Source: Escherichia coli (lineage in GTDB: Bacteria; Pseudomonadota; Gammaproteobacteria; Enterobacterales; Enterobacteriaceae). Taken from it: 64,000 nt of DNA. The position numbers were made by a program, and so were the translations under genes. The notes under the pieces were generated by a model that was not told the DNA's origin, did no database searches, and was given only the letters and a program-made list of their open reading frames with translations. The DNA lies in NCBI RefSeq assembly GCF_003018255.1, contig NZ_CP027440.1. One strand, given 5' to 3'. Shown here in pieces: positions 34,034 through 36,132 of this stretch (positions are counted from its first letter, which is position 1; each line of letters starts with the position of its first letter).

Positions 34034-34777
34034 ATGACACAGACAGAATCAGCGATTCTGGCGCACGCCCGACGATGTGCGCCAGCGGAGTCGTGCGGCT
34101 TCGTGGTGAGAACGCCGGAGGGGGAAAGATATTTTCCCTGCGTGAATATCTCCGGTGAGCCGGAGAAGTATTTCCGGATGTCGCCGGAGGACTGGCTGCA
34201 GGCAGAAATGCAGGGTGAGATTGTGGCGCTGGTCCACAGCCACCCCGGTGGTCTGCCCTGGCTGAGTGAGGCCGACCGGCGGCTGCAGGTGCAGAGTGAT
34301 TTGCCGTGGTGGCTGGTCTGCCGGGGGGCGATTCACAAGTTCCGCTGTGTGCCGCATCTCACCGGGCGGCGCTTTGAGCACGGGGTGACGGACTGTTACA
34401 CGCTGTTCCGGGATGCTTATCATCTGGCGGGGATTGAGATGCCGGATTTTCATCGTGAGGATGACTGGTGGCGTAACGGTCAGAATCTCTATCTGGATAA
34501 TCTGGAGGCCACAGGGCTGTATCAGGTGCCGTTGTCATCAGCACAACCGGGCGATGTGCTGCTGTGCTGTTTTGGTTCATCGGTGCCGAATCATGCCGCC
34601 ATTTACTGTGGTGACGGCGAGCTGCTGCACCATATTCCTGAACAACTGAGTAAACGAGAGAGGTATACCGACAAATGGCAGCGACGCACACACTCCCTCT
34701 GGCGTCACCGGGCATGGCACGCATCTGCCTTTACGGGGATTTACAACGATTTGGCCGCCGCATCGACCTTCGTGTGA
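34034..34777 (+). CDS. K: tail tip assembly protein K (NlpC/P60 + JAB/MPN-like)
   Basis: [25 protein letters not shown]... to ...DLAAASTFV. The classical lambda annotation starts at the internal MSPEDW codon (34178, 199 aa). The longer form starts 5 nt after the L stop. Confidence 0.88.
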
Positions 34778-36132
34778 AAACGGGGGCCGAAGCCATCCGC
34801 GCACTGGCCACACAGCTCCCGGCGTTTCGTCAGAAACTGAGCGACGGCTGGTATCAGGTACGGATTGCCGCACCGGCAGCGCCGTCTCGGATTGAGCTGA
34901 CACCGGGCTATTTTCAGATAACCGCCACGCCGCATCTTGCGGTTTATGATCCGACGGTACAATTTGAGTTCTGGTTCTCGGAAACGTGGATTACCGATAT
35001 CAGGCAGGTTGAAACCACAGCCCGCTACCTTGGCACGGGGCTGTACTGGATAGCCGCCAGTATCAATATCAAACCGGGCCATGATTATTACTTTTATATC
35101 CGCAGTGTGAACACCGTTGGCAAATCGGCATTCGTGGAGGCCGTCGGTCGGGCGAGCGATGATGCGGAAGGTTACCTGGATTTTTTCAAAGGCAAGATAA
35201 CCGAATCCCATCTTGGTAAAGAGCTGCTGGAAAAAGTCGACCTGACGGAGGATAACGCCAGCAAACTGGAGCAGTTTTCGAAAGAGTGGAAGGATGCTAA
35301 CGATAAGTGGAATGCCATGTGGGCTGTCAAAATTGAGCAGACCAAAGACGGCAAACATTATGTCGCGGGTATTGGCCTCAGCATGGAGGACACGGAGGAA
35401 GGCAAACTGAGCCAGTTTCTGGTTGCCGCCAATCGTATCGCGTTTATTGACCCGGCAAACGGGAATGAAACGCCGATGTTTGTGGCGCAGGGCAACCAGA
35501 TATTCATGAACGACGTGTTCCTGAAGCGCCTGACGGCCCCCACCATTACCAGCGGTGGAAATCCACCGGCATTTTCCCTGACACCGGACGGAAAGCTGAC
35601 TGCTAAAAATGCGGATATCAGTGGCAGTGTGAATGCGAACTCCGGGACGCTCAACAACGTCACGATTAATGAGAACTGTCAGATTAAGGGGAAACTGTCA
35701 GCCAATCAGATTGAAGGCGATATTGTCAAAACGGTCAGCAAGTCTTTCCCCCGCACGAACAGTTATGCCAGTGGCACCATCACGGTAAGAATCAGTGATG
35801 ATCAGAAATTTGACCGGCAGGTCATGATACCGCCAGTGTTATTCCGCGGTGGTAAGCATGAGAATTTCAACAGTAATAACCAACAGTCATACTGGTATTC
35901 AACCTGCCGGTTAAGAGTGACCCGCAATGGTCAGGAGATTTTTAATCAGTCCACGACGGATGCTCAGGGCGTATTTTCCTCAGTTATAGATATGCCTGCC
36001 GGACAGGGGACGCTGACACTGACATTCACCGTATCTTCATCAGGAGCGAATAACTGGACACCAACAACCAGTATCAGCGATCTGCTGGTTGTGGTGATGA
36101 AAAAATCCACAGCAGGTATCAGTATCAGCTGA
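34675..36132 (+). CDS. in-frame fusion of tail assembly protein I (first 65 aa) to the C-terminal ~420 aa of tail tip/host-specificity protein J (deletion derivative)
   Basis: aa 1-65 [65 protein letters not shown] = lambda gpI N-terminus. From aa 66, [38 protein letters not shown]... = lambda gpJ from about residue 713. Junction at 34867-34872. Confidence 0.85.

Follow-up and report, generated by a model that had tools for sequence, protein, structure and literature searches.

In bacteriophage lambda, the assembly of the tail is initiated by J. Deletions between short direct repeats, which are independent of RecA and of the slippage type, are for their part a described class in E. coli.

Within the lambda tail tip, gpI from residue 101 onward (helices H1/H2, the plug at 159-175 and the β-strands) is located inside the cone formed by the hub domains of gpJ (PMC11101478). 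The recombinant fragment that comprises residues 713-1132 of lambda gpJ, called gpJ713 (PDB 8xcj/8xck; Ge & Wang 2024, PMC11101478), is stable, trimeric and receptor-binding, and its complex with LamB was used for cryo-electron microscopy (PMC11101478). The A8 gpJ chimera, which derives from a natural J variant, is carried by engineered lambda particles that target OmpC (PMC11338833). A literature search on gpJ713 returned the 2024 structure paper only, and a search for J and OmpC in prophages returned nothing specific.

The locus described here lies in a window of E. coli DNA (the whole stretch analysed, 64,000 nucleotides) and resembles both gpJ713 (8xcj/8xck) and the A8 gpJ 713 fragment (9wca/9wcb), in that its J part starts at residue 713 and contains the second Ig/FNIII domain, the central fibre and the receptor-binding domain. 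It differs from them in that they are laboratory constructs, whereas the present protein derives from a natural deletion, adds a truncated gpI leader of 65 aa and the substitution R752W, and is known from sequence alone. The favoured explanation, to which a probability of roughly 0.9 is assigned, is that an icd-integrated lambda-like prophage recently lost 2,673 bp in one strain lineage, and that this loss represents ordinary inactivating decay and not a new kind of gene.

The chimeric reading frame and its parental allele

The element is a lambdoid prophage located at icd. The window starts inside int and the icd' fragment is found at ~45437-45604, so that, from coordinates, the prophage measures ~46.6 kb here and ~49.3 kb in its intact form. 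It carries lambda-type head and tail genes together with a DLP12-like nin/lysis region. The parental allele was defined by base-by-base comparison with E. coli JNE23-011 (NZ_AP045067.1, locus L001). In the tail region, where all the genes mentioned are on the + strand, K (C40/JAB peptidase, 34034..34777) is intact, maps to L001 6535..7278 and overlaps with its 3' end the start of I. It is followed by the chimeric I'-'J frame (34675..36132), by a terminator-like hairpin with a T-run (36150..36177), which lies between the stop codon of the chimera and lom, and by lom (36199..36798), the side tail fibre gene stf (36857..39778) and tfa (39778..40362), all three undisturbed.

The chimeric frame encodes 485 aa when it is read from the lambda-type ATG of I. 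An alternative GTG start (34774..34776, +) overlaps the stop codon of K and is the one assigned to I by PGAP in the sister genomes, where gpI is accordingly annotated with 190 aa (L001 7275..7847 in JNE23-011); from this GTG at 34774 the gene-caller version of the chimera has 452 aa, and the recorded gene-caller products begin MKTGAEA. The original prediction had described a precise in-frame fusion of the first 65 residues of gpI to gpJ from about residue 713 to its C-terminus, and both the reading frame and the matches to solved structures agree with this description. Residues 1-67 of the chimera correspond to residues 1-67 of lambda gpI (8iyk_I, E 1.8e-36), and residues 66-485 to gpJ from residue 713 to the C-terminus: the first residue of the lambda J 713-1132 construct (8xcj_Z) aligns to chimera residue 66, J 700-1131 (of 1132) in 8iyk_J aligns to chimera residues 53-484, and the alignment with 9wca_J extends to the last residue of the latter.

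The two parts have not been preserved to the same extent. The gpI remnant (codons 1-65; 34675..34869, +) gives the 8iyk_I match and a partial match to Lambda_tail_I (PF06805), the ubiquitin-like N-domain, which covers profile positions 2-51 of 83 in the chimera vs 2-83 in the intact sister gpI. With 50 of the 83 positions retained, the N-domain is not complete, and the 65-aa gpI piece is, as judged from the profile, an incomplete fold. The C-terminal helices H1/H2, the plug and the β-strands of gpI are gone (residues 66-223 deleted). The gpJ remnant (residues 713-1132 and the stop codon; 34870..36132, +), which matches 8xcj_Z and 9wca_J, keeps the fibre and receptor-binding domains (PF24489, PF09327 and PF12421, with E-values of 1e-39, 5.7e-35 and 1.6e-36). 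By Pfam these are the second Ig/FNIII domain (34879-35187, +; chimera residues 69-171), the tail-tip fibre domain (35266-35649, +; residues 198-325) and the C-terminal receptor-binding domain (35755-36129, +; residues 361-485). By the same search, FNIII-A_GpJ (PF24801), Phage-tail_3 (PF13550) and the first Ig domain, Ig_J (PF24421), are absent from the chimera, and all three are found in the intact sister J of 1132 aa.

Comparison with the parental allele places the endpoints precisely. The left side of the window is 100% identical to JNE23-011 up to 34870 and the right side follows it from 34861 onward, with an offset of 2,673 bp (891 codons), a figure that bears out the loss of about 2.67 kb first estimated from lambda coordinates. 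On the J side, two mismatches (34987 and 35001) interrupt an otherwise collinear alignment. The lost DNA comprises 476 bp of I, the I-J spacer of 60 bp and 2,137 bp of J, and at the protein level gpI residues 66-223 (158 residues) and gpJ residues 1-712. The sister I and J (WP_000847666.1 and WP_096946093.1, JNE23-011) occupy the same genomic position, with K upstream and lom, stf and tfa downstream; the chimera differs from them in lacking those 158 gpI residues, 712 gpJ residues and the spacer. The same displacement is seen in many complete E. coli chromosomes, where an 8-kb query around the frame finds 99.9% matches in two pieces that span 10,674 bp and not 8,001 bp.

At the junction (34861..34870, +) only one copy of the 10-bp direct repeat CGGATTGCCG has been kept; the repeat is longer than the GCC/G microhomology of 3-4 bp originally proposed. 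In the intact allele the copies are located at L001 7362-7371, within I (R63-I64-A65), and at 10035-10044, within J (R710-I711-A712); the sequence occurs once in each gene, and both copies are read as Arg-Ile-Ala in the same frame. The repeat is thus present at both parental endpoints, one copy is left and there is no filler DNA. These are the features by which this lesion resembles the short-repeat deletions of E. coli, in which identical repeats (here of 10 bp) flank the segment in the parent and exactly one stays; it differs from them in its spacing of 2.66 kb, which is long for the class.

The prediction that every other head, tail, lysis, replication and recombination gene is intact holds within the window. 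Full length was checked directly for exo (1803..2483) and for the portal gene B (22738..24339), and the other frames that carry SNPs (Rz, E and FI) have a normal length in the list of reading frames, while the intactness of the remaining prophage genes is taken from their near-identity to unflagged CDSs of the PGAP-annotated sister. No other inactivating lesion is visible between position 1 and ~45600 of the window, to the left of which lie attL and most of int. Within that span, the deletion is, as had been proposed, the sole visible inactivating lesion of an otherwise complete icd prophage, one that would abolish tails given that the J hub and the tip-resident gpI have been lost.

Distribution and age of the deleted allele

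In the collections searched, the junction is limited to two assemblies, one complete genome and one 205-bp draft contig. Among 5,426 complete E. coli genomes, none matches a 301-bp junction-centred probe with at least 80% coverage, whereas 4,508 match one of its two sides. Coverage of the surrounding 8 kb reaches at least 80% in 2,538 complete genomes, and in each of the best 25 the match is split and I-J is undeleted. In a collection of 15 billion proteins, the 452-aa product has an exact entry in one NCBI contig of 4.89 Mb, and the 485-aa form has none. A 90-aa junction probe, searched against 5.8 billion clusters, found a sole spanning protein (P0016, 67 aa), encoded by a 205-bp contig of the draft assembly GCA_015392265.1 whose DNA is identical to positions 34770-34974 of the window.

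The intact allele is found in the nearest relatives. Over 12 kb, the chromosome that flanks the prophage shows 100.0% identity to JNE23-011 and JNE112863, and across the 64-kb window JNE23-011 departs at about 13 SNPs and a single 1-bp indel, which is intergenic. These sisters, 99.97-100% identical nearby, carry an intact I (223 aa) and J (1132 aa), and at least 17 complete genomes contain a near-identical prophage (99.9%) with full-length I and a 1132-aa J. Because sisters at such identity keep the intact allele and the junction is so confined, the data support a deletion that is recent and belongs to one strain lineage, as judged from the alleles compared. That the deletion might simply be recent had been one of the two possibilities put forward originally, and it is now the favoured one, with the junction observed in two assemblies.

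The retained part of J has changed little. The substitution at 34987 (+) is a private C-to-T that converts CGG into TGG (J R752W, W105 in the chimera); among the matches listed, for 3,027 complete genomes that cover the stretch, there is no exact full-length match to the version with 34987T. The difference from JNE23-011 at 35001 is common to other copies of the prophage. Gene conversion from a paralogous J was considered as a source of both differences and rejected, one being shared and the other a single private C-to-T. The J remnant thus contains one private missense SNP in 1.3 kb, which does not amount to an excess and does not point to purifying selection.

Origin of the fusion and its expected consequences

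According to the favoured explanation, two 10-bp repeats present by chance, the copies of CGGATTGCCG in I and J, would have recombined or served for replication slippage, with loss of the intervening segment, and the junction can be read as the footprint of a short-repeat (slippage-type) deletion. Slippage, single-strand annealing and illegitimate recombination would leave footprints that cannot be told apart at the level of sequence. Since both copies are read as Arg-Ile-Ala in the same frame, the product is gpI 1-65 joined in frame to gpJ 713-1132. This outcome needs no selection, because eight distinct direct repeats of at least 10 bp, including a 12-mer, are common to the intact I and J, and 5 of the 8 are in frame. 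With eight comparable repeats available, the notion that CGGATTGCCG is an unusual hotspot was rejected. Pressure on packaging length as a force favouring the deletion was also rejected, the intact prophage measuring ~49.3 kb from attL to icd', as estimated from coordinates.

The deletion removes all of the tail-tip-resident gpI together with the hub, the FNIII-A and the first Ig domain of gpJ. Tail assembly should fail, and no tails at all are expected because the J hub that starts their assembly is gone; non-adsorbing tails, which had been named as a possible outcome, are not expected. On induction, the DNA would be replicated and packaged into heads and the cell would be lysed, with no tails of the prophage's own, so that the element would be newly defective. 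The chimera, if it is translated, would be made only late after induction, as a cytoplasmic by-product, and its J part would probably still trimerise and bind a receptor, OmpC for this type of receptor-binding domain. The receptor-binding domain (35755..36129) has zero differences in its alignment to the PDB entry 9wca (A8 gpJ 713), which suggests that the intact form of the prophage is probably OmpC-dependent. It is also physically plausible that a soluble, OmpC-binding trimer would be formed from the chimera on induction. In E. coli the region matches 4 places in the median matching genome and up to 24, and I and J, or complete tails, could be provided in trans by other lambdoid prophages resident in the cell, so the element may not be strictly immobile.

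These properties have to be weighed against the proposal, also contained in the original prediction, that the chimera has been selected as a receptor-masking or exclusion factor. It would be made on induction as a gpJ713-like OmpC trimer, released at lysis or leaked, and kept since it coats the OmpC of kin cells, masking the receptor or acting as a decoy and lowering the adsorption of OmpC-dependent phages. Its J part does correspond to gpJ713, a stable trimer that binds the receptor of lambda; its receptor-binding domain does not differ from that of 9wca A8 gpJ 713, and A8 gpJ uses OmpC; and both the frame and the start signals of I are preserved. In addition, the junction falls at the boundary between the first and second Ig domains, where structural biologists cut J (residue 713) in order to obtain a stable fragment, and what remains is a module with a clean fold, as would be expected of a selected product. 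Given the eight candidate repeats, this agreement is best read as a coincidence, and the preserved frame is what most of the available repeats would have produced. The chimera is known from one lineage only, whose 99.97%-identical sisters have the intact allele, and it is found neither across independent lineages nor conserved beyond the age of the lesion (0 of 5,426 complete genomes, two contigs in the protein collection). Prophage proteins for superinfection exclusion or receptor masking include outer-membrane lipoproteins of the Cor and Llp type, whereas inspection of the translation finds no signal peptide, lipobox or hydrophobic core at the N-terminus of the chimera, so that the protein would be cytoplasmic, and the loops of the receptor face outward. 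The gene belongs to a late operon, and promoter-like sites are not in excess: a consensus scan of 33900-36900 found 2 sites vs 2.2 expected, none of them immediately upstream of the frame on the + strand, although weak promoters can escape such scans. Lysogens are, besides, already immune to their own phage type, and the single private substitution is non-synonymous (R752W), with no hint of purifying selection. The incomplete fold of the 65-aa gpI piece also counts against a selected role. A domesticated, receptor-coating chimera is thus unsupported and considered very improbable.

Two other explanations are less probable still. Most E. coli genomes contain several copies of I and J (median of 4 places, up to 24), which can confuse assemblers, and the paralogues of several prophages could have been mis-joined at a locus that is in reality intact. 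Such an artefact is difficult to reconcile with a separate draft assembly, GCA_015392265.1, in which a 205-bp contig is identical across the junction, with the collinearity of both flanks with one and the same prophage (~100% identity), and with an overlap of 10 bp, too short for a graph mis-join and typical of a genuine short-repeat deletion; a mis-assembly is accordingly held to be slightly less likely than domestication. The last explanation, a functional phage lineage that naturally has a short J-like protein with an I-like leader, can hardly be entertained. No support for it was found: 260 of 50,697 phage records match, none with I' and 'J contiguous, and the best 11 of the 260 cover only query positions 171/176-1458, that is, the J part, with the I match located elsewhere in the same record. 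At least 17 complete genomes with a 99.9% identical prophage have full-length I and a 1132-aa J, and the chimera is missing the hub domains that are essential for siphovirus tips.

In view of the favoured recent deletion, the appropriate annotation would be an I'-'J fusion pseudogene for the 452/485-aa frame and a tail-defective prophage for the icd element of the strain. Beyond annotation the significance is small. The genes are well known and the prophage decay is of an ordinary kind; the locus would be a clean and datable example of a complete prophage turning cryptic through one deletion between 10-bp repeats. It is mildly notable that nature yielded nearly the designed J fragment (713 onward), with a receptor-binding domain of the OmpC type.

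Other lesions and cargo genes

Other prophages have been altered in the same block of genes. A different lambdoid prophage, in strain DEC9B (NZ_CP074760.1, L004 4058-5967), has independently lost the DNA between the end of K and about residue 555 of J; its J resumes out of frame with I, and the remnant carries a pseudogene annotation. Among the matches of the junction probe there were, in addition, I-tfa, J-tfa and J-lom fusion frames from other public assemblies. The DEC9B lesion and these fusions indicate that deletions creating chimeric frames are commonplace in the K-I-J-lom-stf-tfa block. They resemble the present case as internal deletions of this block that yield truncated or chimeric frames, and differ from it in their endpoints; the DEC9B lesion is out of frame, while the present one is in frame at a domain boundary.

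The sister strains carry lesions of their own. JNE23-011 and JNE112863 keep I and J, and both have the nonsense mutation W80* in exo, a gene that is intact here (226 aa; 1803..2483, -); JNE112863 alone has a frameshift in ybcN. In both sisters the portal gene B is occupied by a satellite of 10,912 bp (L002 14926-25837), whose genes specify an integrase, BRO-N and Icd-like proteins, a primase, an SSB, a small terminase, and major capsid and decoration proteins of its own. This set gives it the look of a capsid-forming PICI, whose host would be a phage of the helper type. In the window the corresponding site is empty (23560-23572), with the 13-bp overlap AAGGCGATGTATG. The same prophage has thus been inactivated in different ways in near-clonal strains.

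The prophage contains several cargo regions. In the immunity region, the adjacent genes 4493..5539 (-) and 5533..5994 (-) encode, as a pair, a Ser/Thr protein kinase, which matches the PADLOC entries mad6 and PD-T4-6 (E 8e-49 and 1.5e-36), and a RuvC-family protein, for which no PADLOC match was found. The kinase probably serves as an anti-phage factor encoded by the prophage. A cargo block at 40466..44972, located between tfa and the icd' remnant, encodes DUF2971, DUF4236 (400 aa) and DUF3800 proteins and a hypothetical protein of 209 aa; the DUF2971 protein matches the PADLOC candidate PDC-S31 (E 1e-20), and the genes of this block may be defence or moron genes at the right end of the prophage.

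The protein encoded by stf (973 aa; 36857..39778, +) has a long low-complexity stretch rich in Ala, Ser and Thr, followed by three tandem units of ~45 aa (KGIVQLS.ATNS.SE.LAATPK.VKAA). The DLP12-like nin/lysis region (9700..19400) carries emrE, the ybcK recombinase gene, ybcL and ybcM as cargo, as well as an intact nmpC-like porin gene (15969..17066, -) and, according to the annotation of the sister, iss/bor.
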